Virus record (IMG/VR): IMGVR_UViG_3300045988_182393
Coordinates: 1 to 64,000 of that record
DNA length: 64,000 nt
Direction: 5' to 3' (one strand)
Source of the DNA: a virus
Part shown: positions 2,337 to 61,228 of the stretch, in pieces
How positions within the stretch are numbered: position 1 is the first letter of the stretch
Layout of the letters: every line of letters begins with the position of its first letter
Made by a program: the position numbers and the translations under genes
Notes under the pieces: model-generated
Database searches by the model: none
The model's input: the letters and a program-made list of their open reading frames with translations, nothing else
Told to the model about the DNA's origin: nothing

Positions 2337-2398
2337 GGGAGATTTCCTGGCATTTGGAAAAATACCCCTAGGACTTTGAGCTTTGCTGCACAAAAACA

Positions 2399-2564: not shown

Positions 2565-2582
2565 GTGCGAATCGTATATAAT
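2565..2582 (+). promoter_or_regulatory. Conserved element-specific promoter box GTGCGAA-N5-TATAAT
   Basis: ggtgcgaa tcgta tataat, 37 nt upstream of the phosphoesterase RBS. Confidence 0.6.
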
Positions 2583-2618
2583 CTAAATAGTAAACACAAA
2601 AAAGAGAGGTGAAGAGCC

Positions 2619-3344: not shown

Positions 3345-3374
3345 GTGCCGATAAAACAAGCGTTGAGAGAAACG

Positions 3375-3391
3375 GTGCTATATGCTATAAT
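3375..3391 (+). promoter_or_regulatory. Variant of the conserved promoter box (GGTGCTA-N-TATAAT)
   Basis: ggtgcta tatgc tataat. Spacing is 1 nt shorter than the canonical copies. Sits upstream of a hairpin-rich leader (aaagggacgtcccttt palindrome, cttacggag/ctccgtaag) before 3602. Confidence 0.35.
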
Positions 3392-3601
3392 ATTTTCAAG
3401 TTCAAGAACCACAGCCGATACAATCTCAACGAAGAGCTTGATACCTGCTTGAAACTGCACAGCAATAAAAAACAAATATCAAATAACAGAAATGCAGCTT
3501 AAAGAGAAAGGCTGCCATATAAAATAGCAAGAAACGTTTGCAAAAATAGCAATCAGCGCGAAAGGGACGTCCCTTTCCTTACGGAGAAGAACTCCGTAAG
3601 G

Positions 3602-4602: not shown

Positions 4603-5640
4603 ATGAAGTTCGATTATGCCATTGGTAACCCTCCATATAATGCTGACTTTTCTATTTCTGGTGACAATGGGAAGTTTGCGGCCCCCGTTTATAATCTTTT
4701 TATGGACGCTGCATACGGTATTGCGGATAGAGTTGAATTGATTCATCCGGCACGTTTTTTGTTTAATGCGGGAAGTACGCCGAAGGCATGGAATGAAAAG
4801 ATGCTTAATAATAAGCATTTTAAGGTTTGTTACTATGAGCCTGATTGCAAAAAAGTGTTTTCGAATACAGATATTAAAGGTGGCGTAGCGATAACTTATT
4901 ATGATAGAACTCGTGAATATGCGCCAATTCAAGTTTTCACTCCATACGAAGAACTAAATGGCATTTTGCAAAAGACCAGAAAGTATAGTGAAAAGTCAAA
5001 TGTTGGTGATGTCGGCATTTCTAGTTATGCTTATCATTTCACGCCTATAATGCATAGAGAGCATCCTGAGGTAAAGGCGTTCCAGAGCAAAGGCCATGAG
5101 AATGACTTGAAGTCAAATATTATAGCCAAATTGCCAATGATTTTCTTTAAGGAAAAGCCTGATAATAAGGACTATATTACAATTATGGGACGTTTAGATA
5201 ACGAGAGAGTATCTATGTTTATTCAGCGTTCCTATATCAATGTGGTTAAGAATTTGGATAGCTATAAGATTTTCTTGCCAAAAGCGAGTGGAGTTGGTGA
5301 GTTTGGAGAAGCCCTTGCCCCTGCTATAATTGCAATGCCAGGGGTTGGACACACAGAAACTTTTTTCAGTATAGGCAATTTTTCTACATTGCAAGAGGCG
5401 GAAAATCTACTTAAGTATCTCAAATCAAGATTTGCTCGTGCATTGCTATCAATCTTAAAGAAGACGCAAATGATAACGCCGAGCAATTTTAAATTTATTC
5501 CCCTTCAAGACTTCACTCCCAACTCCGACATTAACTGGTCGGCTTCCATCCGCGACATTGACCAGCAGCTCTACAAGAAGTACGGTCTTTCCCAGCAGGA
5601 AATCGACTTCATCGAATCTCATGTAAAGGAGATGGCATAA
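4603..5640 (+). CDS. Catalytic (NPPY) half of an Eco57I-like N6-adenine DNA methyltransferase
   Basis: MKFDYAIGNPPYNADF (motif IV) then PARFLFNAGSTPKAWNEKMLNN (Eco57I-family P..FL....K.R..LL block). RBS aagggagag. Confidence 0.75.
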   Translation: MKFDYAIGNPPYNADFSISGDNGKFAAPVYNLFMDAAYGIADRVELIHPARFLFNAGSTPKAWNEKMLNNKHFKVCYYEPDCKKVFSNTDIKGGVAITYYDRTREYAPIQVFTPYEELNGILQKTRKYSEKSNVGDVGISSYAYHFTPIMHREHPEVKAFQSKGHENDLKSNIIAKLPMIFFKEKPDNKDYITIMGRLDNERVSMFIQRSYINVVKNLDSYKIFLPKASGVGEFGEALAPAIIAMPGVGHTETFFSIGNFSTLQEAENLLKYLKSRFARALLSILKKTQMITPSNFKFIPLQDFTPNSDINWSASIRDIDQQLYKKYGLSQQEIDFIESHVKEMA

Positions 5641-5641
5641 T

Positions 5642-8600: not shown

Positions 8601-8938
8601 AAGAAGAAAATCCCGGATGCTTTAATGACCCGGACAAGACCTTTATTGACCTGTACATGAAATCGGGCCTGTACATTACCGAAATCGTGAAGCGTCTGTA
8701 CCAGAGCGAAGGCATGAAAGCTGCGTTCCCGAACTCCAAGGAGCGGCTCGAACACATCTTTGAAAAGCAGGTCTACGGTCTGGCTCCGTCCGAAATTATT
8801 TATCGCATTGCAACCAACTATATTCTTGGGTTCTCTGAGGAGCATAACGGAAAGCAGTATAACTTTCGTATGTGCGATGCATTGCCTTATGCAAAGGATG
8901 GGACGTTGAGCGAAAAGCTGGATGAGTTATTTGGATAA
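5642..8938 (+). CDS. T5orf172 (GIY-YIG-like) + SNF2/ResIII-type SF2 helicase with C-terminal coiled-coil and a degenerate methyltransferase motif X/I module
   Basis: N-terminus IYAYT...KIGYT...R...NEWF (GIY-YIG/T5orf172). KPRFGKT (motif I), LIIDEAHEG (DEAH), LHLSGTP (III), TGVTIPEW (V), QAAFRAQN (VI). C-terminus QIFTPKATVAKMV...TFIDLYMKSGLYI resembles methyltransferase motifs X and I. Confidence 0.8.
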   Translation: MSTKIVIKTTDRVVPMIYAYTTPEIARHNGWTKIGYTEQDVDKRLSQQTHTADVEYKEEWRGNATFEDGSGDTFTDKDFHRYLRKLNIENDPKNEWFHVTGPVSRNHFYDFRANRGILQSLTAATPYNLREEQEDAVEKTLDYSRLHTKGEYLWNAKPRFGKTLTAYELCKQMDADTVLIVTNRPAIANSWYSDYEKFLGPDSGYLFVSDTSSLQGKPFVVSRNQYLDMLNNDDYKCIEFVSLQDLKGSIYFGGEFEKLKEVNDIHWDVLIIDEAHEGVDTYKTDVAFDHIDRNFTLHLSGTPFKAIASEKFKEDAIYNWTYADEQKKKRDWQGDQSEQNPYANLPQLNMFTYQMSEVVRDELKQGIEINGETEEWAFDLNEFFAVNQAGNFVHDSAVDKFLDALTTQTKFPFSTPELRDELKHTLWLLNRVDSAKALARKLNNHPVFKDYKVVAAVGDGRLNDDDSAKKAFDSVTEAIAQNDKTITLSVGQLTTGVTIPEWTAVLMLSSIKSASLYMQAAFRAQNPCLFHDKGKFYRKENAYIFDFDPARTLMIFEEFANDLYASTSDGRGDTETRKKHIKELLNFFPVIGEDEDSEMVELDAEKVLSIPRKIRSTEVVNRGFMSNYLFQNISNIFGAPQEVVDIITKFTPVDEPKKQEVKKEDLDRVHVDENGDVKVDEGYVIGLADDIFGDKIYDTVGEQVTQAIDKVAVDNQPKDKALEALQEAFKAQAVKPIVAAATSNYGTEIKASDAKRVEKKLGEDADRLVARTYGDYRIETNQIEKERHEQLAAAAPHEQAKINQEFDQKKAEATEKLKTALNDTVSSFVEDAAKETVRSYETQIEERKKNDVEDTIRDHLRGFARTIPSFLMAYGTEDTTLANFDQIVPDEVFQEVTSITLEQFRFLRDGGDYKDTATGETKHFDGKLFDEVVFDDSIKEFLRLKRELANYFDPANEKDIFDYIPPQRTNQIFTPKATVAKMVSLLEEENPGCFNDPDKTFIDLYMKSGLYITEIVKRLYQSEGMKAAFPNSKERLEHIFEKQVYGLAPSEIIYRIATNYILGFSEEHNGKQYNFRMCDALPYAKDGTLSEKLDELFG

Positions 8939-8958
8939 AACAGTATAGGAATATAGCT

Positions 8959-9001
8959 AAGCCGCCAAGCGAGTGAAATCGTTTGGTGGCTTTTCTTTTT
9001 G
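8959..9001 (+). terminator. Rho-independent terminator
   Basis: gccgccaa...ttggtggc stem then a TTTTCTTTTT run. Confidence 0.65.
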
Positions 9002-9040
9002 CTACGGAAAAGTAGACATTGTACTTGTCATGAGCTTGTT

Positions 9041-9095
9041 GCATACTTGCTACGAACTTGCTAAAAACTTGCTAAGCACTTGCTACGCTTCACCT
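9041..9095. repeat. Tandem CTTGCTA(M) direct repeats (5 copies)
   Basis: acttgctacgaacttgctaaaaacttgctaagcacttgctacg, followed by an inverted gaagcaagttc. Confidence 0.5.
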
Positions 9096-9556
9096 CGAAG
9101 CAAGTTCATTTTTTTGCGCGAAAGAATATCGGATAAGTGACGCTTCCTACTCGTATGACCGAAAGAAAACATGCAAAGACTCTACCATTCTGGTAGGGCT
9201 TTTTTGCTGCCCAAAAAGTTGGAAAAATGTCGCAAGCGAGCCGCTGAAACCTCAGAATTTTGTCGCAGCCTTTCCGAATATGAGATGTATCTCACAAAAG
9301 CGAAATGCGCTGCTTCGTATCTGTGGTGAGACAATCGGAACAGGCGAATAGCAAAATCTCAGCTGCCGCAAATGCTGTCAAGTTCAAATCACAACTCCCA
9401 AAAGTTTCGTTTGGGAAAGCCTGCATTAAAAGTTTCGTTCTGGAAAATGCAGAGGGGAAAGGAAAATGTCGAAGCATATATGCACTGATTTTCTTCTTGC
9501 TATTTGTGCAATCCGCTCAAATTGGCGATAAATATTCCCAAAATAAATAAGTCAAA

Positions 9557-9574
9557 GTGCTTTTGGTGTATAAT
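9557..9574 (+). promoter_or_regulatory. Promoter (GTGC-N8-TATAAT variant) of lipoprotein gene 1
   Basis: gtgc ttttggtg tataat. The whole upstream region is duplicated upstream of the paralog at 10797-10814. Confidence 0.45.
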
Positions 9575-9605
9575 AGCTCTGACAAACAGAAAAAAGGAGA
9601 ACACT

Positions 9606-10700
9606 ATGAAAAAGGTTGTATCATTAGCACTTTCGACTTTGCTCGTCCTCTCGTTGGCTGCCTGTGGCAAGGCAGACAGTTCTGCTGCAGCCTCAAGTGA
9701 ATCCAAGTCAAGTGCTTCGTCGTCAAGTGCTTCGTCAAATAGCACTTCCAATAGCACGCAAGATTACAGCCCTGACGGGATTAAAGTAGGAGAGACATAT
9801 ACTACAGAAGACGGCAAAACATATGAAAGGGTGTGGAACGGCACAGGCAGCGATTTACCTACGCCGTCCCCCGAACCCAAAATTACATACGATAATGATT
9901 TCCAGGCACAAACACTTGTTGATAATGAAGAATGCACCATTATCTTGCAGAGCGTAGGCTACGATGATGATTACGGCTATTATTGGAAGCTTTACTTCAA
10001 GAATAAGACATCAGATAAAAAACTCGGTTACTCGTTTGGCGACTGCACATTGAATGGCGTGGGTGCGAGCCTTTGGCTTACGAGTGTTGAACCTGGTCAA
10101 GAGGAAACGGAGATTCATCATTGGGAAAGTTCCGGGCTTAAAATTTATAACATCAATCCGCAGGATATCAATACGGTAAGTTTTTATCTCGATGTCTATA
10201 ACGAATTAGATTATGATGTTATCCCACGGCATGACTTTGTTGATGACGATTTCGTGGTTTATCCAAAAGGGGAAGAAAACGCAACCGAGCCAAAGCATGA
10301 AACCCAACCCACAGACCTCGTACTGGCCGACAATGACGCTTGCACTCTGATGATTTGTGGATTTGACCCCGATGGCCTGGACGGTTACACGGCTAAAGCT
10401 TACATCGAAAACAAAACAGATAAAGAAATCATGCTTGCCTTTAGAAGTGGAGGTTCCATAAATGGCTTTGAGTGCTTCCCTGAAACAGATACAATGGGAA
10501 TTGATGCGCACACTAATGCCTATGTAGACATCTACTATCGCGATTATTTGGATACTTATGAGGCCAACGGTAAAGACCCCACCTCTATCACCGAAATGGT
10601 GATGCCAATCGTTATAAACAATTTCAATACTCGGGACATCTATGTAGATGAGACTTTCACTATTAACCCTCAGACAAATTCCGTGACAACATCGAAATAA
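9606..10700 (+). CDS. Secreted lipoprotein (paralog 1), Ser-rich linker + repeated beta-rich domains
   Basis: MKKVVSLALSTLLVLSLAAC lipobox. Shares blocks TIILQSVGYDDDYGYYWK, DDDFVVYPKGEE and DPTSITE-VMP with 10845-11867. Confidence 0.75.
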   Translation: MKKVVSLALSTLLVLSLAACGKADSSAAASSESKSSASSSSASSNSTSNSTQDYSPDGIKVGETYTTEDGKTYERVWNGTGSDLPTPSPEPKITYDNDFQAQTLVDNEECTIILQSVGYDDDYGYYWKLYFKNKTSDKKLGYSFGDCTLNGVGASLWLTSVEPGQEETEIHHWESSGLKIYNINPQDINTVSFYLDVYNELDYDVIPRHDFVDDDFVVYPKGEENATEPKHETQPTDLVLADNDACTLMICGFDPDGLDGYTAKAYIENKTDKEIMLAFRSGGSINGFECFPETDTMGIDAHTNAYVDIYYRDYLDTYEANGKDPTSITEMVMPIVINNFNTRDIYVDETFTINPQTNSVTTSK

Positions 10701-10796: not shown

Positions 10797-10814
10797 GCGC
10801 TTTTGATGTATAAT
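10797..10814 (+). promoter_or_regulatory. Promoter of lipoprotein gene 2 (duplicated copy)
   Basis: gcgc ttttgatg tataat. Flanks are about 85% identical to 9530-9640. Confidence 0.4.
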
Positions 10815-10844
10815 AGCCTTATACAAAGAAAAAAGGAGAAAATC

Positions 10845-11867
10845 ATGAAAAAGGTTGTATCATTAGCACTTTCGGCTTTGCTTGTACTTTCCCTGGCCGC
10901 CTGTAGCAGCTCTAACACTACCAGTACTGCTGCCAGCAGTGCAGCTACATCTGATGCTGCATCCTCCGAGGAAAGCACCAGCGACTCTTCAACGAGTACT
11001 GCAAGTAGTGCTGCCGATAGTACAACGGCTGAACCTGACATCCAGTTCGATGAGAGTTTCCAGCCACAGACGATTGCCGACAACGATACCTGTACCATCA
11101 TCTTGCAGAGCGTTGGCTATGATGATGACTACGGATACTACTGGAAGATTAACTTCCAGAACAAAACGGACGACAAGACTCTATGCGCTATCACAAGCAG
11201 TTCATCGCTGAACGGAATCCCAGCCGATACCAGCTGGTTCCCGGAAATCGGACCCGGAGAAGAGGTTACTGAAGTCGTTTCGTGGGACAGCGAAGGACTG
11301 GAAATCTATGGAGTGAAACCGCAAGACATCGATACCGTCAAACTTCACATCGATGTCTATGATGAAGCAGAATGGGATGTGTCGAATCGTGATGACCCTA
11401 TCGATGATGACTTTGTGATTTATCCGAAAGGTGAAGAGAAAGCGACAAAACCAAAACACGAGATTCAGCCCACGGATATTGTGCTGTTCGACAATAATGC
11501 CTGCAGCATGGTCGTTTGCGGATTTTATTCTGATAGTTTCATGGGCTATACGGCGAAAGCCTACTGTCAGAACAAGACGGATGACCGTATCGATATCATT
11601 TTGGACAAAGGCTCTATCAACGGCTTTGAATGTACCCCAGAAGGAGCGGCACTACTGGAACCACATTCTAATGCCTACGTGGATATCCGTTGGCAGGAAT
11701 ATGCCGGAACCTACGCAGAAAATGGCAATGACCCAACATCCATCACAGAAATTGTAATGCCAGTTTTTGTGAGAAAAGACACAGGGAGCAATACGGTATA
11801 CATTGACGCCACTTATTCTATTGACCCGCAGGCAAGAACAGCAACGCCGATAGTGAATCCCCAATGA
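10845..11867 (+). CDS. Secreted lipoprotein (paralog 2)
   Basis: MKKVVSLALSALLVLSLAAC lipobox. Tandem duplicate of 9606-10700 including the 5'UTR. Confidence 0.75.
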   Translation: MKKVVSLALSALLVLSLAACSSSNTTSTAASSAATSDAASSEESTSDSSTSTASSAADSTTAEPDIQFDESFQPQTIADNDTCTIILQSVGYDDDYGYYWKINFQNKTDDKTLCAITSSSSLNGIPADTSWFPEIGPGEEVTEVVSWDSEGLEIYGVKPQDIDTVKLHIDVYDEAEWDVSNRDDPIDDDFVIYPKGEEKATKPKHEIQPTDIVLFDNNACSMVVCGFYSDSFMGYTAKAYCQNKTDDRIDIILDKGSINGFECTPEGAALLEPHSNAYVDIRWQEYAGTYAENGNDPTSITEIVMPVFVRKDTGSNTVYIDATYSIDPQARTATPIVNPQ

Positions 11868-25654: not shown

Positions 25655-25700
25655 GAGCGCACGCCCCGTCTATAGCCGTAAGGCTTAGGCGGGGTTGGCA
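25655..25700 (+). ncRNA. Structured RNA module copy R1 (GTAA-tetraloop nested hairpin)
   Basis: ccccgtcta-t-agcc-GTAA-ggct-tag-gcgggg. Covaries with R2 and R3. Confidence 0.4.
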
Positions 25701-25929: not shown

Positions 25930-26268
25930 TTTTCCGGGGGTCTCGACACGTCCCTCGTAAGAGAGCTGCCCCGTAAGGGGTGAAACTTCACAGGAGGATG
26001 CACTCAAAAAGCTGGGAACGCAGACAAGTGTGTTGGTCAACCTGCAAAGGCTGGATACTCATGGAAAGCCACACCCGTGGCTTTTTGTGGGAAACCGCAT
26101 AACTCGCTACCTGGCATGCTGCATGGTGATGAGCCTTGCAGCTGCCGCCCAGGAATCCCACGATTTCAATCGTGGGAGGTGTCAACGTAAGGCTACAACT
26201 CACGGAGAACCCCCATCTACAGCCGTAAGGCTTAGGTGGGGAGGTTCACGGGATGAGGTAAATATCAT
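25930..26268 (+). ncRNA. Highly structured ~340-nt leader containing module copy R2 and multiple GNRA hairpins
   Basis: ctc-GTAA-gag, cccc-GTAA-gggg, gccac-accc-gtggc, cccacga-TTTCAA-tcgtggg, ccccatcta-c-agcc-GTAA-ggct-tagg-tgggg, then RBS and ATG 26269. Confidence 0.4.
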
Positions 26269-34137: not shown

Positions 34138-34255
34138 GGGAAATATAAAATAAATAAGTGTAAGCCGCAGAGATTATGTTTCTGCGGCTCTTTCTTTTGT
34201 GGTCCCCATGCGGATGAAAATGTCTGCGTGGGGATTATTTATTGGGAGATATAAC

Positions 34256-35515
<1,260 letters not shown>

Positions 35516-35719
35516 TGGAATTATGGGTGTGCCGATTACTTTTTTGGACAAGTATAACCCGGATGAATTTGAGATTATTCAACTCTGTGCCTCTCATGGG
35601 AAAGTGCCAAAAGGAATTGAGAATGAATCTGGCTATATAAATGGGAAATGGTTGTATGCCCGTATTCTTATTCAAAAGAAGAAAGAATGTAAATATTAAG
35701 GAGAATTAGGAAAACTGAA

Positions 35720-38099: not shown

Positions 38100-38590
38100 C
38101 CAAGCTGCTAGGTCGTTATTTTACAAAAAAATTCAAAAACAGGAGCCGTTCATACCACAGGAAAGCCTGCGGGTTTTCTAGCTCCCAATTATAACATTGG
38201 TGCCCGGTATTTCATCCGCGAGGTAACAAAACCCATGTCAAAGAAGGCATGGTCTCAGTGTAAGGCTAAAGTTCCTGACATTGGGCGTAGAACCCAATGC
38301 ACATTGTACTCCCTTAAACAGTTGCATTCACTGTTGAGCCCCCCCGTGGCGACTCAACAGCCCGGGCCCATCTGTTGGGATTACACTGTGTTGCGAGAAC
38401 TTTGCGGGAGACTAACCCCTATGTGGCGACCAATGCCGTCAGGCATTGTTAGCTAAGTTCGGGTCGTATCTCTACCTTCGGGTTACGCAGAGACTTACCG
38501 TGGGGTTACAACCCACGGAGAAGCCCCAACTATAGCCGAAAGGTTTAGGTGGGGAGGTCCACGATGAAGCATACAAAATTAGCGAGGTAG
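38100..38590 (+). ncRNA. Structured non-coding leader containing module copy R3
   Basis: ctgttgag...ctcaacag hairpin, ccgtggg-gttacaa-cccacgg, ccccaacta-t-agcc-GAAA-ggtt-tagg-tgggg, then RBS and ATG 38597. Confidence 0.35.
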
Positions 38591-53730: not shown

Positions 53731-53813
53731 CGCTTGCCAAAATATACGAACGCCGTACAATGTAAAGTGTGAACAGATACTAAGCAATCAGTAGGATTCA
53801 CAATCTGTATTTT

Positions 53814-53856
53814 AAGCGGACTTATCCCATAGCGGGGTAGGTCCGCTTTTTTTGTT
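53814..53856 (+). terminator. Rho-independent terminator
   Basis: agcggac...gtccgct then ttttttt. Confidence 0.7.
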
Positions 53857-53872
53857 GAAAGGAGAAGAATTC

Positions 53873-55033
53873 ATGAAAATCAAAAACAAGCTTTTACGGA
53901 GTACAGCGGCAATCATCGCTGCGCTCTTTGCACTCAGCTTCACCGGCTGCGGTCAGAGTCCGATAATATCGGAAAGTCCATCCAGTATCGGGGTCGTCTC
54001 AGAAAGCACTGTGAGCAGTGACCAGACAGCTGGCGATTCGGTGGACGGCAGCTTTACGATTCACTTTATAGACGTAGGGCAGGCGGATTCCGCCCTTATC
54101 ACCTGTGACGGCCACTCAATGCTTATTGATGGCGGTAATGTAGATGATTCTAACCTCTTATATTCTGTTATGCAGCGTGAAACCGATGGGCACCTGGATT
54201 ATGTCGTTGGGACTCACGCGCACGAAGACCACATCGGCGGCTTGTCCGGTGCTTTTGAGGCCGTCACTGCGGACATGACTCTATGCCCTGTGACAGAATA
54301 CGACAGCAAAGCATTTCGGGACTTTGCAAGCTACGCGGAACAGAAAGGCGGAGGCATCACGATACCGGATGTGGGTGAAACCTACACTCTGGGGGAAGCG
54401 GAATTCACGATAGTTGGTGTTAATTCTGCTCCCGATGATACGAACAATGCATCGATTGTTCTGCGCATCGTTTATGGGGATACTTCGTTCCTCTTTACTG
54501 GTGATGCTGAACAGGAAGCCGAAAATGTGATACTTGCATCGGGACAAGACATTCAGTCAACGGTTCTGAAAGTAGGTCATCACGGCTCAAACACATCCAC
54601 ATCGGAAGCCTTTCTGGATGCAGTGAATCCGACCTATGCTGTGATTTCCTGTGGAGCAGGGAACAGCTATGGCCACCCGCATCAGGAAACACTCGACAAG
54701 CTGCAAAACAAGGGTGTTGAGGTTTATCGCACAGACCTGCTGGGTGATATCTATTGTACCTCGGATGGCAAAGAGGTAAGTTTCACTTCCGGTGAATATC
54801 ATGATGAAAACCGGATTGAAGCCGGTAGTGCTGCAGATTCCAAGGATGAACAGGACAAAGCTTCACTTGTCATAGACGAGACATACGTTCTGAACACGAG
54901 CACTATGAAGTTTCACAAACCCGATTGCTCTGCAGTCGAATCGATGAGTCAAAAGAATCGAATCGACTATATGGGGCCCCGCGATGAGCTCATCCAGGAA
55001 GGGTATTCGGCGTGTGGGATTTGCAAACCATAA
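53873..55033 (+). CDS. Lipoprotein with ComEC/Rec2-type metallo-beta-lactamase fold hydrolase domain
   Basis: Lipobox LSFTGC. HFIDVGQADS, GTHAHEDHIGG (HxHxDH), GDAE, KVGHHGS. Confidence 0.75.
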   Translation: MKIKNKLLRSTAAIIAALFALSFTGCGQSPIISESPSSIGVVSESTVSSDQTAGDSVDGSFTIHFIDVGQADSALITCDGHSMLIDGGNVDDSNLLYSVMQRETDGHLDYVVGTHAHEDHIGGLSGAFEAVTADMTLCPVTEYDSKAFRDFASYAEQKGGGITIPDVGETYTLGEAEFTIVGVNSAPDDTNNASIVLRIVYGDTSFLFTGDAEQEAENVILASGQDIQSTVLKVGHHGSNTSTSEAFLDAVNPTYAVISCGAGNSYGHPHQETLDKLQNKGVEVYRTDLLGDIYCTSDGKEVSFTSGEYHDENRIEAGSAADSKDEQDKASLVIDETYVLNTSTMKFHKPDCSAVESMSQKNRIDYMGPRDELIQEGYSACGICKP

Positions 55034-55061
55034 AAATTGCACCTGATTTACTCGACAAGCT

Positions 55062-55079
55062 GTGCGAACCGACTACAAT
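55062..55079 (+). promoter_or_regulatory. Conserved promoter box GTGCGAA-N5-TACAAT
   Basis: ctgtgcgaa ccgac tacaat. Confidence 0.55.
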
Positions 55080-55149
55080 AAAAATTGTACGATAGATAAC
55101 ATTCTATATCGAAAGGGTTTTATGCCTTTCGTACATTCACAATTTCGCT

Positions 55150-55192
55150 TAAAGGGCGGACTTCCTGTTTTTAGGGAGCCCGCCCTTTTTGT
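55150..55192 (+). terminator. Intrinsic-terminator-like hairpin inside the leader between the promoter box and 55217 (attenuator-like)
   Basis: aaagggcgg...ccgcccttt then ttg, preceded by a cgaaagg...cctttcg hairpin. Confidence 0.45.
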
Positions 55193-55216
55193 ATGAACAA
55201 GAAGGAGCGTAATGCA

Positions 55217-55957
55217 ATGTTCAAAATTCACGATGACAAAGTCTATTTCGTCGCCGAAACCCCCGATATCAACAAAGTTATCGAAATCTTCCTACCTAAG
55301 GATGACCGTGGCACCATTATGGATTCACACGAAATCCGTGTGGACCTGTGCCGTGCCGTCATTCACATGGAGAAGGAGGGTGTCCGTGTCTTGAAGGTCC
55401 GCAACATTGAGGATACCAACAAGGCAAGCATCGACATCTGGCACATGCCGGAATATCAGGAGGCTGCAGAGTCTCCCGTAAGCGATGTGGTCAATGCCTG
55501 CATTGAGTCCTGCTTTGATTCCGGTGCAATGTTCAATCTGCCATGCAAAGCCAACCGCAAAACCCATGAAGTTTTTGCTGTCGAATGCTGCGCAAGCCCC
55601 GATGATGATGACTCGTTCAGTTATGCAGAAGTGAAAATCAACGGCAAGGATTATCCTATCAATTTTATTGACGATATTCTTCTCGAAAACAATGTTGATG
55701 ATGCGCTGGATGAGTTTTATAGAATTCAGCAGACAGGCGAGTATTGGCAGCCTGATGGCAACAAAACGCTGGATGATGCCATTCACGAATGTCGTTGGGC
55801 TATCCTGAAGGATGCCATCCAGAAGCGCGGACATGAGGCTGTTGCTGATTTTGTCGGGACCGACATTTCCAGCGATACTTACGACCGCGTGATGGATGAA
55901 ACCGAAGCCCAGATGCCGGACGAAGAGTTCGAGCGCTTCTGGGAAAAGTACATCTAA
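55217..55957 (+). CDS. hypothetical protein (first gene of the radical-SAM operon)
   Basis: RBS aaggag. ~246 aa. Confidence 0.5.
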   Translation: MFKIHDDKVYFVAETPDINKVIEIFLPKDDRGTIMDSHEIRVDLCRAVIHMEKEGVRVLKVRNIEDTNKASIDIWHMPEYQEAAESPVSDVVNACIESCFDSGAMFNLPCKANRKTHEVFAVECCASPDDDDSFSYAEVKINGKDYPINFIDDILLENNVDDALDEFYRIQQTGEYWQPDGNKTLDDAIHECRWAILKDAIQKRGHEAVADFVGTDISSDTYDRVMDETEAQMPDEEFERFWEKYI

Positions 55958-55992
55958 GAAACATCTCACACACAGAAAGGGAGCATATTACT

Positions 55993-56319
55993 ATGGCTAT
56001 TTTCAATACCAACGAATTTCTCCGCAAAACCTTCAGCAAGACCATCTTTGGTACTGCTGCACTTCGTCCGGAAGCAGTTTGTGCAGACGGCTTCACCCTG
56101 TCGATTCAGGCAAGCGGCATGCACTACTGCATACCGAACGAAGACCTGTCGGACGGCAATTACTCTAAGGTTGAACTCAGCTACTTGTCTGAGGAGGTCG
56201 AAGAGTTTCTGCCGTTTGCTGAAGACGACGAGGCACCGCTGGCTACGGTCTACGGGTATGTGCCCGTAGAAACCGTAGACGCGGTTCTGGCCAAGCACGG
56301 CGGTATCGTCAACGCGTGA
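55993..56319 (+). CDS. hypothetical protein
   Basis: 108 aa. RBS aaagggag. Confidence 0.45.
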   Translation: MAIFNTNEFLRKTFSKTIFGTAALRPEAVCADGFTLSIQASGMHYCIPNEDLSDGNYSKVELSYLSEEVEEFLPFAEDDEAPLATVYGYVPVETVDAVLAKHGGIVNA

Positions 56320-56335
56320 GGGGGGGGAACTTACG

Positions 56336-56662
56336 ATGGAAGTATTCACTATCGTCGCCAATGAGGTCATTGGCTTATCCGCAACGGAATGCACACTGAT
56401 GCAATTCAGCTACAATCCGGAGCAAATCCATGACCCCGAAGCGGTCCTGCGCAGTGCTGTCATGGACTATCTCAAGACGGATGAAGGCAAACGACAGCTG
56501 GAAATCAACTGTGGTTGCTGGAACTGGGGCGATGTCGATGACATTCCCGGCTCGTTCTTCTTGAACTATGGTCTGACTAAAATCGCTCCGCCGGATGTGA
56601 ATGTTGTCGTCGACCGCAACGAGAACTTCATGGATGACTACGAGGATTGCGAGGAAGAATAA
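56336..56662 (+). CDS. hypothetical acidic protein
   Basis: 108 aa. C-terminus DDYEDCEEE. Confidence 0.45.
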   Translation: MEVFTIVANEVIGLSATECTLMQFSYNPEQIHDPEAVLRSAVMDYLKTDEGKRQLEINCGCWNWGDVDDIPGSFFLNYGLTKIAPPDVNVVVDRNENFMDDYEDCEEE

Positions 56663-56680
56663 CAGAAAGGGCATGAAAAA

Positions 56681-57421
56681 ATGCGTATTTATAGCGCAAA
56701 CAACGTATTCATAGAAGTTACGCGCCGATGCAATATGTGCTGTGCGCACTGCCTGCGCGGAGATGCCGAAAGCATCGATATTCAGGAGAAGTACATCGAC
56801 GCTTTTCTCGACAACCTTGAGAAGGGAGCTTATATCAGCTCTCTTACCTTTACCGGTGGGGAAATCTCTCTGAATATACCGGCAATTCGATACACCTTGA
56901 AAGCTGTCAAAGAGCGCGGTATCGCCGTTGGAAGCTTTTACATGGTCACTAACGGAAAAGCTGTCGATAAGATGGCTGACCTTGCTATGGCGAGTCTGGA
57001 GTGGTGGGCCTACTGCGATGAAAAAGATGACTATATGTGCGGTCTTTGCATCAGCAGTGATAACTTCCACGAAGCAATCCCATATGAAAGTGAAAGTATC
57101 CTTAGTGGCTTGAAATATAACCGTAACGATAAGGTAACGGACTTCCATCTGGCTTATTTACTGAACGAAGGGCGTGCTAAGAATCTCGATTCGAATATCT
57201 ATAAGAAGCGTGAACCTCATGTAGACAAGCTCGAATACGAATTCAACAAAACCGGCGATATCGACTTTTACAGCGGCGAGCTGTACTTGAACGCCATCGG
57301 TGATGTCGTTTCCGGCTGCGATTGGTCCTACAAGTCGCAGAAGAAATATCGTTTTGGTAATGTAATGAACAAAAACTGGCTGGAAAACATTTCCAACAGC
57401 GAGTTGTACATTGCAAGCTAA
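56681..57421 (+). CDS. Small radical SAM enzyme (possible twitch/SPASM-like auxiliary Cys)
   Basis: VTRRCNMCCAHC (CxxxCxxC), TFTGGE (GGE motif). Extra CDEKDDYMCGLC Cys triad. Confidence 0.7.
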   Translation: MRIYSANNVFIEVTRRCNMCCAHCLRGDAESIDIQEKYIDAFLDNLEKGAYISSLTFTGGEISLNIPAIRYTLKAVKERGIAVGSFYMVTNGKAVDKMADLAMASLEWWAYCDEKDDYMCGLCISSDNFHEAIPYESESILSGLKYNRNDKVTDFHLAYLLNEGRAKNLDSNIYKKREPHVDKLEYEFNKTGDIDFYSGELYLNAIGDVVSGCDWSYKSQKKYRFGNVMNKNWLENISNSELYIAS

Positions 57422-57491
57422 ACCATATCACTTATACATTGCCACTGTTTTCCTACAGAAACGGTGGCTTTTTTAGAAAAGGAGACCACAA

Positions 57492-58925
57492 ATGACTGAA
57501 ACAAAAGACATGTTTGAACAAATCAGCGCCATCTTAACCGATAAGAAAGATAAGCCGTTTTCTTATGAGGAGCTTGCAGCAATGCTCAAAACTGACCCTG
57601 ATGCCCTCAAAACCTTTGATGAGGTCTATAAGACACAGGTTCTTGAAAGCGGAGAGCTGCATGAAAATATGCTCCAGTGGGATACAGCTACAGTCAAAGC
57701 AATTCTCGACAAAAAGGTCTACTTCCCACCGGAACTCAATTCGCTCATTGACCGCATCGTCACAGAACTGGTGCTTGAAACGCGTCTGTACATCTACAAC
57801 GCGGAACGCGGTGGCTATTATGTGACATACTCTGCCAACCGCGACTTTATGACAGAGGTTACAAACGAGGAGTTGAAACGCTACCCCGAAGAACTCCGTC
57901 CGCAGCTCACCGGAAAGTTGATGAAGATTGACATTTCTGAGCCGTCGTACAAGGAACTGCTTCAAAACTACGCAGGCTACAAGAATGCAAAGAACGACAG
58001 CACAAAAATGTTCTACCACAACATGTTCCGTCAAGGTCTTGACATCCTCGACCTTGATGACTTCACTTATCAGATGCTTGAGATGAACCCCAACTCTATG
58101 GGCTTCTGGTTTCCTCCTCTGGTAGAGGGATTGTACGGCAGCGCATTTTTCAAGGTTCCGGACACAAAAATTCTTCGCGTACCTATCACCATGCTGCAGC
58201 TTACCCGCCTTGGTTTCGAGACGTTGAATCCCGTTACAAAGGAAATCGTGAACCGTTATTGCCAGAAAGTCTTCCATCTTGATGGATACGAAGACTATTT
58301 TATCAAAACGGGCACGTATTCTTCCAAATACGAATTCCGCAACGCTCATATCCATAACCCGAAGGAAATCAATGAGATGGGCGAGTATTTCTTGTTTTTG
58401 AATCATCTGACATGCTCGATGGCATCCCCTCTGAACAATCGCTGCTTCTACGGCGCGAACACCACGAACGAGTGGGTCGTCAGAGAATACATCAAGGACA
58501 AAGAAAATAACCCCACCATCTACAACGGTTTGCCGCTGCACACTGAATATCGCGTGTTTGTGGATTTTGATACAAAGGAAATCCTTGGCGCAAGTCCTTA
58601 TTGGCGCAGCGATGTTATGAAGAACGAATTCAAAAAAGTCAGCAGCCCACAGGAACGCCATGATTATGTTGTCTACAAGATGCATGAAGACATTCTGAAC
58701 CAGCGTTACCACGAAAGCGTTCAAACTGTTCTGGCTGAGCTGAAGAAGGTTATTCCTCGCATTGAGTTGACAGGGCAGTGGAGCGTCGATGTAATGCGCA
58801 ACGGCAATGATTACTACATCATTGATATGGCGCTTGCTGAGAACTCTGCTCTGAATGACTGCGTGCCGAGTAACCGCCTTCGTGCTTATCCGCAGCAGTG
58901 GCTGCCGGGTGAATCGAACAGCTGA
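57492..58925 (+). CDS. ATP-grasp-fold protein
   Basis: YFIKTGTYSSK (K/Gly-rich loop), WVVREYIKD (QEYI-like), QWSVDVMRNGNDYYIIDMALAENS (C-terminal vD...yyiiEvN). Confidence 0.55.
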   Translation: MTETKDMFEQISAILTDKKDKPFSYEELAAMLKTDPDALKTFDEVYKTQVLESGELHENMLQWDTATVKAILDKKVYFPPELNSLIDRIVTELVLETRLYIYNAERGGYYVTYSANRDFMTEVTNEELKRYPEELRPQLTGKLMKIDISEPSYKELLQNYAGYKNAKNDSTKMFYHNMFRQGLDILDLDDFTYQMLEMNPNSMGFWFPPLVEGLYGSAFFKVPDTKILRVPITMLQLTRLGFETLNPVTKEIVNRYCQKVFHLDGYEDYFIKTGTYSSKYEFRNAHIHNPKEINEMGEYFLFLNHLTCSMASPLNNRCFYGANTTNEWVVREYIKDKENNPTIYNGLPLHTEYRVFVDFDTKEILGASPYWRSDVMKNEFKKVSSPQERHDYVVYKMHEDILNQRYHESVQTVLAELKKVIPRIELTGQWSVDVMRNGNDYYIIDMALAENSALNDCVPSNRLRAYPQQWLPGESNS

Positions 58926-59018: not shown

Positions 59019-59057
59019 AAGACCACTACCCCAAAAAGGGTAGTGGTCTTATTTTTT
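59019..59057 (+). terminator. Rho-independent terminator
   Basis: aagaccactaccc-caaaaa-gggtagtggtctt then attttttg. Confidence 0.8.
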
Positions 59058-59104
59058 GCACAATACTTACCATAAATTACCAGAAAGAAAAACATTGTGC
59101 ATCT

Positions 59105-59122
59105 GTGCGAATTGCATATAAT
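59105..59122 (+). promoter_or_regulatory. Conserved promoter box GTGCGAA-N5-TATAAT
   Basis: tctgtgcgaa ttgca tataat. Confidence 0.6.
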
Positions 59123-59234
59123 ACAAAATATAGAACGAAAGGCATCAAAAAACATCGTTGGTCGGGCAAAATCCGACCGAAAGGCTAGGGCGGGCTCAGT
59201 TTTGAACCTGCTCTTTCTTTTTATCGGAGGCTTT

Positions 59235-59762
59235 ATGTCAAACAAAGAAGAACGCATGAACCGCAATAAAAGCATCATCGAAGATTACAAAAATGGAAAG
59301 CCGATTTTAGAAATCGCGAGGGAATATAATCTTTCAGAAACGATGTGCTACAAGATTCTAAAAGGTACGCAGGAGCCGCCTCGTTATTTTGAAAAAAAGA
59401 GGAAGAGACTTGCCACTCGAAATGAGCAGATTGTTAAACAGTATAAAGGCGGTATGACGGCCAGAGAATTGGGCAAGATGTACGGCATTTCCATGCAGCG
59501 TATTTATGCAATCTTGCATTCGAGCGGAGAGTACGAAAGCCAAAAATACAATCATATTGAAACGGCTCTCAAAAAAGAGAAAAAGATGCGGAACCAAACT
59601 TTTCTTGATGCTTACACAAAAAATCCTCAAAAATCGATTATCGAGTTGAGCAGGGAGGTAAATATCAGCCCTTCACTAGGTTATCTTATCCTTCATCAAA
59701 ATGGGATTTACCAGTATAACGTAAAAGCCAGAGCTAAGGAGAATAGCGAAAATGCCGATTAA
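59235..59762 (+). CDS. Tandem-HTH-repeat DNA-binding protein (paralog 2)
   Basis: Repeats PILEIAREYNLSETMCYKIL / TARELGKMYGISMQRIYAIL / SIIELSREVNISPSLGYLIL. Confidence 0.6.
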   Translation: MSNKEERMNRNKSIIEDYKNGKPILEIAREYNLSETMCYKILKGTQEPPRYFEKKRKRLATRNEQIVKQYKGGMTARELGKMYGISMQRIYAILHSSGEYESQKYNHIETALKKEKKMRNQTFLDAYTKNPQKSIIELSREVNISPSLGYLILHQNGIYQYNVKARAKENSENAD

Positions 59763-60270
59763 CAAGATTACCCACGTGTGTCTAACTCATGACAAAGTCA
59801 GGGCGCGAAATGAAAAGATGCTGGAGGATGCCGATAACGGTATGTCCCAGGAACAGCTGGCCGAAAAGTATCAAATCTGTGTTTCTACTGTCCGATATAG
59901 TCTGAAGGACTTTTACGAAGAACAGGCCCGGCAGAGAAAAGCAAAGAAGAAAGCCTGGCAAACCCAGATGATTCATGAATATGAGATGGGCGCAAAATCT
60001 CCGGAGCTTCAGGAAAAATACGGCATCAGTGGAACGCTCTTTTATCGGATTCTTCATGCGCACGGAAAGAATGGCCGACAAATCCACAGCCAAAACCGTA
60101 TCGAGACCGGCAAGAAAAGAAACGCCGAGATGGTCAGGAAATACAAAAACGGCGTTTCTGTCAAAGAGCTTGCGGAAGAATACGGGCTCAAAAAGGGAAG
60201 TGTATATCGCGCCATGAAGCGGTATAATCCAGGCCCAGGGAAAAGTAAAAGTTGTCAAAGTGAGGAATAA
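59752..60270 (+). CDS. Tandem-HTH-repeat DNA-binding protein (paralog 3)
   Basis: SQEQLAEKYQICVSTVRYSL / SPELQEKYGISGTLFYRIL / SVKELAEEYGLKKGSVYRAM. Confidence 0.6.
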   Translation: MPINKITHVCLTHDKVRARNEKMLEDADNGMSQEQLAEKYQICVSTVRYSLKDFYEEQARQRKAKKKAWQTQMIHEYEMGAKSPELQEKYGISGTLFYRILHAHGKNGRQIHSQNRIETGKKRNAEMVRKYKNGVSVKELAEEYGLKKGSVYRAMKRYNPGPGKSKSCQSEE

Positions 60271-60274
60271 TTGC

Positions 60275-61228
60275 ATGGCTGCATCAAAGAAAGATGTTGC
60301 GAAGCAGCAGGTCAAAGAAGACCGAGAAAAAGTCCGGGAAATGTATCTTTCTGGCAAAACTGTCAAGGAAATCGCCAAGGAAACGTATTTTTCAAGCTCT
60401 TATTGCTATGCCATGGTGAGAGACCTAGCAAAAGAAAAGAATCTTGCAAAGAAAGCAAAAAGAGCACCTCTCGACGAAGCTATGATTCAAGATGCGAAAG
60501 CCGGGATGACGGTTGCTGAAATCGCAAAGAAGCATGGCGTGACCTATCAGCAGTGCTACTATACTGTTTCTGAATACGCTCAAGCTACGATTAAGAAGAA
60601 CAAGAAAAAGCAGTCTGCTGCCACGAAAGTTCGCAATGCGGCTATGTTGGAAGATGCGAAAGCCGGAATGACTGATAAGGAAATCGCCAAAAAATACTTT
60701 TTGTCTCGAAGCAGTGTCCGTACCGTCCTTGCAGGGCATTTACATACAAATTCCAAAAAGTTGGATGAAAGGCGCAAGGCGATTCTTGCGGATTATGAGG
60801 CAGGAACGTCCTCAAAAGACATCTGTGAGAAATACGGTATTTCAAAATCCACTCTTTACAAGGACATGCGCCAAATTGGAAAAACCTGTCAGGAATACTA
60901 TCACAAGGCGCTGAAAGACAAGACCAATCGAAGGAATTCCGATATTCGAAGCAAAATCGAAAGAGGGGTCTCGGTCAGCACTATTGCCAAGGAATACGGA
61001 ATCTCTAAAACGGCGATTTATGAAACGTTTCATCAGGAAAATGTCAGAGCTGGAATTTTACAGAAACGCGGCCGTCCGCGAAAAAACACGGAACGTAATG
61101 CACTGATTGCTAAACGCCACAGGGAAGGCGAGAAGGTGCAGGCGCTTGCCACTGAATATAATCTCTCTGTTTCGACGGTAAACACTATTTGCAGTAGAAA
61201 CAAAAATCAGAATATAACCTCATATTAA
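60275..61228 (+). CDS. Tandem-HTH-repeat DNA-binding protein (paralog 4, ~7 modules)
   Basis: TVKEIAKETYFSSSYCYAMV, TVAEIAKKHGVTYQQCYYTV, TDKEIAKKYFLSRSSVRTVL, SSKDICEKYGISKSTLYKDM, SVSTIAKEYGISKTAIYETF, KVQALATEYNLSVSTVNTIC. Confidence 0.6.
   Translation: MAASKKDVAKQQVKEDREKVREMYLSGKTVKEIAKETYFSSSYCYAMVRDLAKEKNLAKKAKRAPLDEAMIQDAKAGMTVAEIAKKHGVTYQQCYYTVSEYAQATIKKNKKKQSAATKVRNAAMLEDAKAGMTDKEIAKKYFLSRSSVRTVLAGHLHTNSKKLDERRKAILADYEAGTSSKDICEKYGISKSTLYKDMRQIGKTCQEYYHKALKDKTNRRNSDIRSKIERGVSVSTIAKEYGISKTAIYETFHQENVRAGILQKRGRPRKNTERNALIAKRHREGEKVQALATEYNLSVSTVNTICSRNKNQNITSY

Follow-up and report, generated by a model that had tools for sequence, protein, structure and literature searches.

Promoter-proximal terminators that are overcome by antitermination are known from lambda, where Q acts at PR'/tR', and from HK022, where this is achieved by put RNA. 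Among radical SAM enzymes, the peptide epimerase EpeE/YydG of Bacillus subtilis (PDB 8ai1-8ai6; TIGR04078) is a protein of 319 aa with an extended twitch domain that carries an auxiliary [4Fe-4S] cluster, and its locus, epeXEPAB, includes a precursor peptide, a protease, and an ABC transporter. Cys223 of EpeE is the H-atom donor (PMC13012085). Among ATP-grasp proteins, those of the R2K clade were predicted to be protein-peptide ligases in phage-host conflicts (Burroughs, Zhang and Aravind 2015, PMC4431377). As regards CDC123, two reports give ATP binding and assembly, not ligation, as its established roles (PMC8844851, PMC12860950).

The window (i.e., the whole stretch of 64,000 nucleotides of viral DNA that was analyzed) contains, downstream of a copy of a promoter box, five co-oriented ORFs on the + strand that encode proteins of 246, 108, 108, 246, and 477 aa, all present as a previous sequence-only reading had listed them. 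We interpret them, with a confidence that is about evenly divided, as independent accessory genes that form a promoter-led cassette on a large mobile element from gut Clostridia (Oscillospiraceae/Clostridiales), and not as a dedicated biosynthetic pathway. The products of genes 4 and 5 are probably protein-modifying effectors. The features of the locus are the following:

55051-55079, + strand: promoter box, TCGACA-16 nt-TACAAT with GTGCGAA inside the spacer
55086-55135, + strand: leader hairpin 1, a branched 5' hairpin
55153-55191, + strand: leader hairpin 2, a terminator-like GC-rich stem (55153-55186) followed by UUUUUG
55217-55957, + strand: gene 1, an acidic 246-aa protein (pI 4.41) without a family match
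55993-56319, + strand: gene 2, an acidic 108-aa protein (pI 4.27)
56336-56662, + strand: gene 3, an acidic 108-aa protein (pI 4.05)
56681-57421, + strand: gene 4, a compact 246-aa radical SAM enzyme, EpeE/YydG-like
57441-57474, + strand: hairpin between genes 4 and 5, terminator-like, 11-bp stem followed by T6
57492-58925, + strand: gene 5, a 477-aa protein with a predicted C-terminal CDC123-like (R2K-type) ATP-grasp domain
59019-59057, + strand: terminal terminator, 13-bp stem (hairpin 59019-59050) and a T-run

An alternative start of gene 1, an ATG at 55193, would give a protein of 254 aa, but the start at 55217 was preferred because of an AAGGAG ribosome-binding site and the public gene calls. 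The sole match of gene 2 was a weak one to a PHROG of unknown function, and this gene is frequently missing from related arrangements. In gene 3, NCGCWNWGDVDDIP is conserved and the acidic tail is variable. The third small protein had been singled out as acidic, which it is, but this property extends to the products of genes 1 and 2. Elsewhere in the window, genes for a Y-family polymerase, orphan methyltransferases, helicases, VWA, GmrSD/HNH, and PLD nuclease proteins are nearly all placed on the + strand behind repeated boxes, and neither capsid nor type IV secretion genes were found in the window. The cassette was also detected on many IMG/VR contigs and in Clostridiales and Oscillospiraceae assemblies, and on some related contigs a dCMP deaminase gene is located a few kb downstream. 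Radical SAM relatives at 43-53% identity have SSB, VWA, TraG/VirD4, DUF87, and YodL genes as neighbours.

The promoter box comprises a -35-like TCGACA (55052-55057), the spacer element GTGCGAA (55062-55068), and a -10 TACAAT (55074-55079), which places the element noticed earlier inside a box spanning 55052-55079. With up to two mismatches, GTGCGAAnnnnnTACAAT was found in 22 copies in the window, 20 of them on the + strand, where 1.83 would be expected; 100 shuffles gave no more than 5. The start signals of a sigma-70-type, element-specific promoter are in place as judged by sequence, and the transcript would open with a conserved structured leader. The minimum free energy of this leader was -45.2 kcal/mol (z = -5.6), and none of 200 shuffles folded as well. 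RNAalifold on eight leader variants from related contigs retained 29 pairs, six of which showed compensatory double changes, mostly in the terminator-like stem (5-6 stem pairs). Hairpin 1 combines an invariant outer stem, GUACGA/UCGUAC, with a variable inner hairpin and a conserved 5' motif, UGUACGAUAGAUAAC; a related 5' motif is also found 3' of the boxes at 15318 and 44688. Hairpin 2 ends approximately 10 nt upstream of the ribosome-binding site of gene 1. Folding and compensatory changes therefore agree with the two-hairpin leader and terminator-like second hairpin of the sequence-only reading, and its operon layout behind a box promoter held as well. That reading also recognized the leader terminator and the strong one after the array (59019-59050 plus T-run) but overlooked the hairpin between genes 4 and 5. 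The next promoter box begins at 59094.

The leader had also been taken as a sign of conditional expression of this particular operon, which our comparison of arrangements does not support. Specifically, in other arrangements the same box and leader stand upstream of gene 3 and again upstream of a relocated gene 1, which on related contigs lies downstream of gene 5 with a box and leader of its own. Moreover, at least eight boxes in the window share the design of a promoter followed by a hairpin and a T-run. Since the box and leader recur upstream of other genes, the leader belongs to the element and is not operon-specific. This design is similar to those of lambda Q and HK022 put in three ways: a conserved element lies between the -35 and -10 of the promoter, the genes are preceded first by conserved structured 5' RNA and next by a hairpin resembling an intrinsic terminator, and the arrangement is repeated at several promoters within one element. 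Unlike in those systems, neither a Q-like protein nor a put-like RNA was identified here, and the hairpin accompanies only about 8 of the 20 boxes. Read-through at leader hairpin 2, and at the weaker one that separates genes 4 and 5, would rely on element-wide antitermination and not on a metabolite tied to these genes.

Gene 4 encodes a compact radical SAM enzyme. Among solved structures, its closest relative in both sequence profile and fold is that of the peptide epimerase EpeE/YydG. As read previously from its 246 aa, C17xxxC21xxC24 and G59-G60-E61 are present, and both are invariant in 28 homologues, as are S125-x-D127-x-F129-H130 and C213. Pfam PF04055 matched with 32.4 bits (cut-off 29.5), and the fold is a partial TIM-barrel, as the radical SAM superfamily requires. 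The family profile matched EpeE with E = 2.4e-10 over residues 5-135, the next-best PDB match being 6e-5, and SxDxFH pairs with SYDEYH of EpeE in the profile alignment. C213 is the sole invariant cysteine outside CxxxCxxC among the 28 homologues. HMMER aligns it with EpeE chain residue 248 (native C223), but the stretch concerned is not significant; together with the overall fold match, this hints weakly at an equivalence of the two cysteines. The family is sizeable, with at least 367 clusters at 90% identity, and is found in Clostridia, Bacteroidota, and other gut anaerobes. The enzyme differs from EpeE in its length (246 against 319 aa), in that the cysteines of the auxiliary cluster are not conserved, in a locus that has no precursor peptide, protease, or ABC transporter, and in its residence on mobile elements of gut anaerobes. 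We propose that it would make a 5'-deoxyadenosyl radical, abstract an H atom from a peptide or protein substrate, and return one from Cys213, an epimerase-like chemistry without an auxiliary Fe-S cluster.

An extra Cys triad had suggested a SPASM/twitch domain. C112, C120, and C123 do exist in the protein of the window, but they are not conserved as a triad across the family: about three quarters of its members retain C112 and C120, about one third retain C123, and these positions lie inside the barrel and not in a C-terminal domain. As C112 and C120 are so frequent, many members may bind a second metal site. Pfam SPASM scored 15.8 bits (cut-off 21.5), no auxiliary-cluster cysteines are conserved among the 28 homologues, and there is no conserved C-terminal Cys-rich domain, C213 alone being invariant; the SPASM/twitch subfamily was rejected. 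The YydG/EpeE equivalog TIGR04078 reached 33.3 bits against a cut-off of 300. Viperin, NrdG, and MoaA were likewise rejected on NCBIfam scores far under the family cut-offs, and QueE on the lack of a close fold match, in line with the earlier statement that gene 4 is not QueE, NrdG, or viperin.

A different view would have the radical SAM enzyme act on a nucleotide, DNA, or RNA, viperin-like or in hypermodification, with the ATP-grasp protein activating or ligating a group, for defence or for protection of the element's DNA. We consider this very unlikely. On the one hand, the window is rich in methyltransferases, nucleases, and helicases, and the dCMP deaminase gene of some related contigs would fit such a role. 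On the other hand, the viperin matches are confined to the generic radical SAM core at the N-terminus (residues 11-108) and stay far under the cut-off (27 vs 180 bits), whereas EpeE is better by five orders of magnitude with an alignment that reaches past the core. Nucleotide kinase, hydroxymethylase, and glycosyltransferase are all absent from the adjoining genes, and the profile of gene 5 appears to relate to CDC123, a protein-binding ATP-grasp, and not to the nucleotide-acting ones.

That gene 5 encodes an ATP-grasp-fold protein, as first read, is supported by the agreement of fold and conserved residues. The latter include K272, K279, E332, E352-x-R354, D433, and D445, and correspond to the RAGNYA-strand Lys, hinge Glu, E-x-R, and acidic Mg ligands of ATP-grasp; apart from E332, all of these stay invariant in homologues of as little as about 30% identity. 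The structure model is of only moderate quality (mean pLDDT 68.5), and about 160 aa at the N-terminus form a mostly helical domain. Gene 5 matched none of the Pfam or NCBIfam families, DUF4343 of Pfam included (E up to 1), and searching PDB sequences with a profile likewise gave no hit. An hhalign comparison based on a family alignment of 98 sequences matched CDC123 with 68-78% probability (E ~2e-5) over the C-terminal half only, against 0.2% for RimK and at most 2.1% for 20 shuffled CDC123 sequences. K272-x6-K279 is invariant in FIKTGTxSSK and has the spacing of K-x6-R in FPKLNWSAPR of human CDC123, and K279 provides the second Lys/Arg in the loop after the strand-2 Lys that is a feature of R2K. 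At the level of sequence, gene 5 is thus probably a CDC123-like (R2K-clade) ATP-grasp with an extra N-terminal domain. It differs from the CDC123/R2K clade (PDB 4zgo, 8phd) in this additional domain, in having no Pfam ATP-grasp match, and in the replacement of the DxN Asn by Ala. Specifically, the terminal ExN/DxN Mg motif reads I-I-D445-M-A447 in the gene 5 family, with Ala in all aligned members, and gene 5 may therefore not be a ligase. It would bind ATP and either attach an amino acid or a peptide to a target protein by ligation or serve as an ATP-dependent binder of such a protein. A graspetide/RiPP ATP-grasp ligase was rejected, as gene 5 is not close to the MdnC/CdnC types and no precursor with a leader was found.

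Members of the gene 5 family fall into 836 clusters at 50% identity, and temperate phages, SPbeta-like ones among them, carry some of these proteins. Its ATP-grasp domain matched PHROG 12834, of unknown function (E = 5.9e-73; 25-42% identity by tblastn), with homologues in SPbeta-like Staphylococcus phages, Streptococcus phage Javan420, Clostridium phage Maintenon, and Fusobacterium phage phiFN37. These are encoded in early/accessory regions of temperate phages, with no radical SAM gene as a neighbour, and their N-terminal region is either shorter than that of gene 5 or different from it.

The loss of the Mg-binding Asn from gene 5 and of the auxiliary cluster from gene 4 could mean that both enzymes are decayed or non-catalytic and persist as binders, decoys, or near-neutral cargo. 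This would agree with the DxA found throughout the gene 5 family, with a cassette that varies through gains and losses, and with CDC123 itself, whose established roles are ATP binding and assembly as opposed to ligation (PMC8844851, PMC12860950). However, the cluster cysteines, GGE, and several further residues of gene 4 are invariant from 93% to 40% identity, and gene 5 retains the ATP-grasp lysines, E352-x-R354, D433, and D445 to about 30%. The large size of both families (367 clusters at 90% and 836 at 50% identity, respectively) also argues for purifying selection on catalytic sites, and we regard decay as highly improbable.

The combination of a radical SAM enzyme and an ATP-grasp protein had been read as a single pathway, but the pairing is confined to one close lineage and is often broken there. 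Among 70 radical SAM loci of this lineage with enough flank, gene 5 was adjacent in 45, lay beyond an inserted gene in 21, and was missing from 4, while 4 of 59 gene 5 loci lacked the radical SAM gene. In relatives, insertions of 1.1 kb and 2.3 kb occupy the space between genes 4 and 5. Radical SAM relatives at 43-59% identity lack gene 5, and the more distant radical SAM loci had no homologue of genes 1, 2, 3, or 5. Genes 4 and 5 thus look like separate accessory genes and not like two steps of one pathway, although genes 3, 4, and 5 may be functionally linked within the lineage, where they usually stay together.

Such a link could take the form of a RiPP-like or protein-maturation pathway: the radical SAM enzyme would epimerise or cross-link the product of gene 3 (or 2) as its substrate, and the ATP-grasp protein would then ligate residues or close a macrocycle to yield a toxin, a signal, or a modified effector. 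The nearest relatives of gene 4 are indeed RiPP/protein maturases (EpeE, ChlB, anSME, CteB, and SuiB). Gene 3 ends 18 nt upstream of gene 4 and is its most constant upstream neighbour (adjacent in 70 of 77 loci), which mirrors epeX-epeE; two of its cysteines are nearly invariant as a pair, and many members end in an acidic tail of the kind that RimK-type ligases extend. In 66 of the 70 lineage loci, genes 4 and 5 lie no more than a few kb apart. Nevertheless, we consider this pathway unlikely. Gene 3 is conserved over its full length like a folded protein, with no pattern of leader and variable core, its tail is missing in several members, and its family is limited to relatives of at least 55% identity, whereas the radical SAM family is far broader. 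The small ORFs beside distant radical SAM homologues are mutually unrelated, so that no conserved precursor peptide emerged from the small ORFs in which one had been sought. Neither a RiPP recognition element nor a protease, transporter, or immunity gene was found at the locus, and genes 4 and 5 are parted by a terminator-like hairpin as well as by frequent insertions.

Under the preferred reading of a cassette of independent accessory genes, genes 4 and 5 would work independently of each other. Their most likely targets would be host proteins while the element establishes itself, for host takeover or counter-defence, and the radical SAM enzyme would have gene 3 as its sole plausible lineage-specific partner or substrate. 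A more specific joint proposal, quite unlikely as a whole, is that both effectors are aimed at the host: the EpeE-like radical SAM enzyme without an auxiliary cluster would edit (epimerise or otherwise) the backbone of a host protein or of the gene 3 protein, and the CDC123-like ATP-grasp would target a translational GTPase of the EF-Tu/IF2 type, a target suggested by CDC123 and eIF2-gamma. In this proposal, both would belong to a regulon of about 20 promoters with promoter-proximal terminators and Q-/put-like antitermination.

If the genes are merely unlinked cargo, the finding is an ordinary one. Both enzyme families are sizeable, without annotation, and uncharacterised. If gene 4 is an EpeE-type epimerase without an auxiliary cluster, it would represent the minimal machinery for radical epimerisation of peptides or proteins and would move this chemistry from RiPP biosynthesis to the conflict between mobile elements and their hosts. 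Likewise, a phage-borne CDC123-like ATP-grasp would allow a test of the 2015 prediction that the R2K clade arose as protein-modifying conflict effectors. Finally, the recurring succession of promoter, structured leader, and terminator may represent a new antitermination regulon of gut Firmicutes, for which it is a tractable candidate.

The cassette comprises five genes preceded by a promoter box that recurs in the window and by a structured leader. It encodes a radical SAM enzyme related to EpeE and an ATP-grasp protein related to CDC123, and its synteny among relatives is mosaic. All five ORFs lie at the positions claimed in the sequence-only reading, and the public annotation of six near-identical contigs lists the identical five products (246, 108, 108, 246, and 477 aa). 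The intergenic gaps from gene 1 to gene 5 measure 35, 16, 18, and 70 nt, and the terminator claimed to close the array was recovered downstream of gene 5. The operon layout stood, except that a terminator-like hairpin splitting genes 4 and 5 had been overlooked. Likewise, the third small protein is acidic as claimed, but so are the other two (pI 4.41, 4.27, and 4.05 for genes 1, 2, and 3, respectively). The features are as follows:

55052-55079, + strand: promoter box, TCGACA-16 nt-TACAAT with GTGCGAA within the spacer
55086-55135, + strand: leader hairpin 1, 5' and branched
55153-55186, + strand: leader hairpin 2, GC-rich, then UUUUUG, just ahead of the AAGGAG ribosome-binding site of gene 1
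55217-55957, + strand: gene 1
55993-56319, + strand: gene 2
56336-56662, + strand: gene 3
56681-57421, + strand: gene 4, radical SAM
57441-57474, + strand: terminator-like hairpin and T6 between genes 4 and 5
57492-58925, + strand: gene 5, ATP-grasp
59019-59050, + strand: terminator after gene 5

The promoter box claimed ahead of gene 1 is real. With at most two mismatches, GTGCGAAnnnnnTACAAT has 22 copies in the window (1.83 expected; maximum of 5 in 100 shuffles), and 20 of these are on the + strand. The leader (55086-55216) has a folding energy of -45.2 kcal/mol (z = -5.6), and its proposed architecture of two hairpins, the second terminator-like, was borne out. Conservation of the leader exceeds that of the gene that follows, as it is near-identical ahead of gene 1 homologues sharing 51% identity. 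For eight leader variants 29 base pairs were predicted, 6 of them with compensatory double changes, chiefly in the terminator-like stem, while no change was seen in the outer stem of hairpin 1 or in the 5' motif UGUACGAUAGAUAAC. Rfam searches of the window and of the leader gave no family. Hairpin 1 might form an antiterminator by pairing its 3' arm (GCCUUU) with the terminator's 5' arm (AAAGGG), but this was discarded, as by eye it suits two variants and not a third.

The same box and leader were also found ahead of other genes. Where the order is MBL-gene 3-gene 4-gene 5-gene 1, they directly precede gene 3, with a second copy before the relocated gene 1, and in four related loci (L159, L164, L178, and L023) the gene 3 homologue has a box and leader (UGUACGAUAGAUAAC ... 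terminator hairpin) approximately 170 nt ahead of it. Of the 20 + strand boxes in the window, at least 8 have a strong GC hairpin and T-run within 57-130 nt downstream (dG -14 to -27 kcal/mol):

Starts of these boxes, all + strand: 15321, 27849, 34120, 44691, 47027, 53744, 55062, and 59105

Short motifs are common to the cassette leader and the leaders at 15318, 44688, and 53787. A covariance model of the leader retrieved one full copy in the window and weak partial matches to the leaders starting at 53787 and 41920, so that the leaders of the window share modules rather than form one RNA family. With the same box and leader ahead of different genes, and a hairpin and T-run behind other boxes, the leader is, as judged from its sequence contexts, a portable expression module of the element rather than a sensor for the chemistry of the cassette genes. 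The conditional expression that had been proposed is thus not upheld as specific to this operon. By analogy, the repeated order of promoter, terminator-like leader, and gene suggests a Q-like or put-like antitermination regulon. At lambda PR' the Q-binding site lies between -35 and -10, and the put sites of HK022 are structured 5' RNAs. The cassette box resembles the former through its conserved GTGCGAA between -35 and -10, and the leader may be likened to the latter as a structured 5' RNA. Under an element-wide antitermination scheme, read-through of both hairpins, in the leader and between genes 4 and 5, would be regulated.

Gene 4 scored narrowly above the Radical_SAM cut-off of Pfam and has the radical SAM fold. 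Its CxxxCxxC and GGE motifs are present as described and are invariant in an alignment of 28 homologues ranging from 93% down to 40% identity, in which the unchanging positions are C17, C21, C24, G59-G60-E61, S125, D127, F129, H130, K151, G164, A166, G207, and C213. The specific NCBIfam models (W-cofactor maturase, YydG, viperin, NrdG, MoaA, and others) matched the N-terminal core only, with 18-38 bits versus cut-offs of 130-515, in agreement with the earlier view that this is neither viperin nor NrdG. Membership in the YydG equivalog was rejected on the same grounds, the score falling far under the model cut-off. The extra Cys triad previously taken as a sign of a SPASM/twitch domain did not hold up: C112 and C120 are retained in about three quarters of the homologues and C123 in roughly a third, the three residues sit between barrel elements and outside any C-terminal domain, and the Pfam SPASM score was 15.8 bits, under the cut-off of 21.5.

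A search of the PDB with the gene 4 family profile identified EpeE (YydG), the 319-aa peptide epimerase of Bacillus subtilis, as the best match (E = 2.4e-10, residues 5-135), with SxDxFH of gene 4 aligned to SYDEYH of EpeE; the runner-up trailed by five orders of magnitude. The search also gave a second, weak stretch in which G207-x5-C213 aligned with GEIYPCC of EpeE, placing C213 on chain residue 248, the native C223. This residue is the H-atom donor that completes epimerisation in EpeE (PMC13012085). From the EpeE profile match, the alignment of C213, and the lack of conserved extra cysteines, we read gene 4 as a probable compact EpeE-like radical SAM enzyme in which the conserved auxiliary cluster is lost and a candidate H-donor cysteine retained. 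Such an enzyme would take a hydrogen off a peptide or protein substrate, with C213 supplying one in return. The gene 4 protein had no match among PLSDB plasmids, and a faecal phage contig lacking annotation gave one weak match. Literature searches brought up no plasmid- or phage-borne radical SAM enzyme with a characterised anti-defence role.

Gene 5 matched nothing in Pfam or NCBIfam, nor in the PDB by single-sequence or family-profile search. Placement in DUF4343 or another Pfam ATP-grasp family was rejected, since gene 5, ten distant representatives, and four phage homologues all gave no match. PHROG 12834 (function unknown) matched residues 164-458 (5.9e-73), and a BFVD search returned only weak matches to jumbo-phage ATP-grasp proteins. 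The family comprises 836 representative clusters (E < 1e-3). From the window protein down to phage homologues at approximately 30% identity, the invariant positions are F-I-K272-T-G-T-x-S-S-K279, E352-x-R354-x-F, D433, and I-I-D445-M-A447. In the hinge V-R-E-Y-I, R331 is invariant and E332 nearly so among the closer family, and the Asn of the ExN/DxN Mg-binding motif is missing from the family. The defining trait of the R2K clade, to which the eukaryotic protein CDC123 belongs, is a pair of lysines spaced K-x6-K (Burroughs, Zhang and Aravind, PMC4431377). The K272-x6-K279 spacing of gene 5 corresponds to K-x6-R in human CDC123, whose sequence was verified against PDB 8phd. Comparisons with hhalign, using a 98-sequence alignment of the gene 5 family as query, gave:

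CDC123, human plus S. pombe: probability 78%, E = 1.8e-5, gene 5 325-448 versus CDC123 161-249
Human CDC123 alone: probability 68%, E = 4.7e-5
Control, E. coli RimK (sequence verified): probability 0.2%
Control, 20 shuffled CDC123 sequences: probability at most 2.1%

Set against these controls, the profiles suggest a specific relationship between gene 5 and CDC123, with only the C-terminal half aligned. The earlier ATP-grasp call was sound as to fold. The protein would act as an ATP-dependent ligase or binder with a protein target.

The sequence-only reading had joined the radical SAM and ATP-grasp proteins into one pathway. Among the close relatives of the cassette, we counted 70 IMG/VR radical SAM loci whose downstream flank reaches 4.5 kb or more: gene 5 was adjacent in 45, beyond an insertion of 1.1 or 2.3 kb in 21, and absent in 4. 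The radical SAM gene, in turn, was missing from 4 of 59 gene 5 loci. Where the radical SAM protein shares 71% identity, the interval from gene 1 to gene 3 carries three inserted genes and a single one separates gene 4 from gene 5; at 59% identity both gene 3 and gene 5 are missing, and at 43-53% no homologue of gene 1, 2, 3, or 5 was found within 6 kb. No radical SAM neighbour was found beside phage homologues of the gene 5 ATP-grasp domain. Given these insertions, absences, and distant relatives without the partner, gene order makes the one-pathway idea appear weak, though within this lineage the two enzymes could still be linked. Relatives show the gene 4-gene 5 interval to be an insertion hot spot (inserts at 2205-4470 of locus L111 and 8733-9810 of locus L155). 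The 1.1-kb insert encodes a 358-aa protein with no function assigned, and the 2.3-kb insert a 579-aa ORF that resembles OrfB_IS605 (TnpB-like) only faintly.

Gene 3 is the sole steady partner of the radical SAM gene, adjoining it in 70 of 77 loci, and its family is restricted to relatives at 55% identity or more. Its conservation runs from end to end, as in a folded protein, and its acidic tail varies. A conserved precursor peptide, a feature to be sought among the small ORFs, was not found, as those near distant radical SAM homologues are mutually unrelated. Genes 1-3 gave nothing usable in Pfam, NCBIfam, PHROGs, or PADLOC, PDB sequence searches with genes 1 and 3 had no match, and a comparison of genes 2 and 3 as possible paralogues was negative.

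The window belongs to a large mobile element, of which it forms an accessory-gene region coding for a Y-family polymerase, Eco57I-like and EcoRI-like methyltransferases, ResIII/SNF2 and UvrD-like helicases, Band-7, VWA, PLD nuclease, GmrSD-HNH, RlaP nucleotidyltransferase, and MBL-fold lipoprotein; no phage or conjugation hallmark genes were detected in it, PHROG scans of ten further window proteins included. The cassette is common among human-gut assemblies and on IMG/VR contigs as long as 389 kb, and also occurs in a Clostridiales MAG and an Oscillospiraceae isolate; a nucleotide search against GenBank phages gave no match. Homologues of the gene 5 domain are present in temperate phages. Distant radical SAM homologues adjoin SSB, VWA, TraG/VirD4, DUF87, and YodL genes, a neighbourhood typical of conjugative elements. 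Longer radical SAM relatives (345-412 aa, 31-34% identity; loci L030-L033 and L060, approximately 5000-10400) were found in Ruminococcaceae and Solibaculum genomes. They lie in a conserved block of JAB-like, ThiF (E1-like), 141-aa protein, radical SAM, and DUF6094 methyltransferase genes, with VWA, SMC-like, and Rad52 genes close by.

Upstream of the cassette, 53852-55033 encodes the MBL-fold lipoprotein, which has a Cys-rich C-terminal tail, a faint Pfam match to Anti-Pycsar Apyc1, and PADLOC matches to the MBL domains of LmuA, DRT, and Avs1a. Most relatives keep its gene in synteny with the cassette, and a separate box and leader terminator (53733-53848) precede it. Directly after the cassette, three consecutive genes with their own box (59097-61228) encode tandem helix-turn-helix repeat proteins with faint matches to Mor and HTH_7/23/28, which are candidate regulators of the box promoters. 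Elsewhere, a (GACA)n tract (35224-35282) falls within the gene for the EcoRI-like orphan methyltransferase (34199-35515) or at its end, and around the tract are three diverged copies of a 77-nt coding segment (at 35091, 35319, and 35509; span 35091-35585); this methyltransferase could be phase-variable or segment-switching. The GC-rich palindromic element CCCCnTCTAnAGCCGnAAGGnTTAGGnGGGG, 31-65 nt, has three intergenic copies (25664-25694, 26186-26250, and 38499-38563), and two adjacent paralogous lipoprotein genes (9504-10700 and 10803-11867) have near-identical signal-peptide regions and upstream sequences.

The products of genes 4 and 5 are uncharacterised and represent new variants within known superfamilies. 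Both would have host targets while the element establishes itself.
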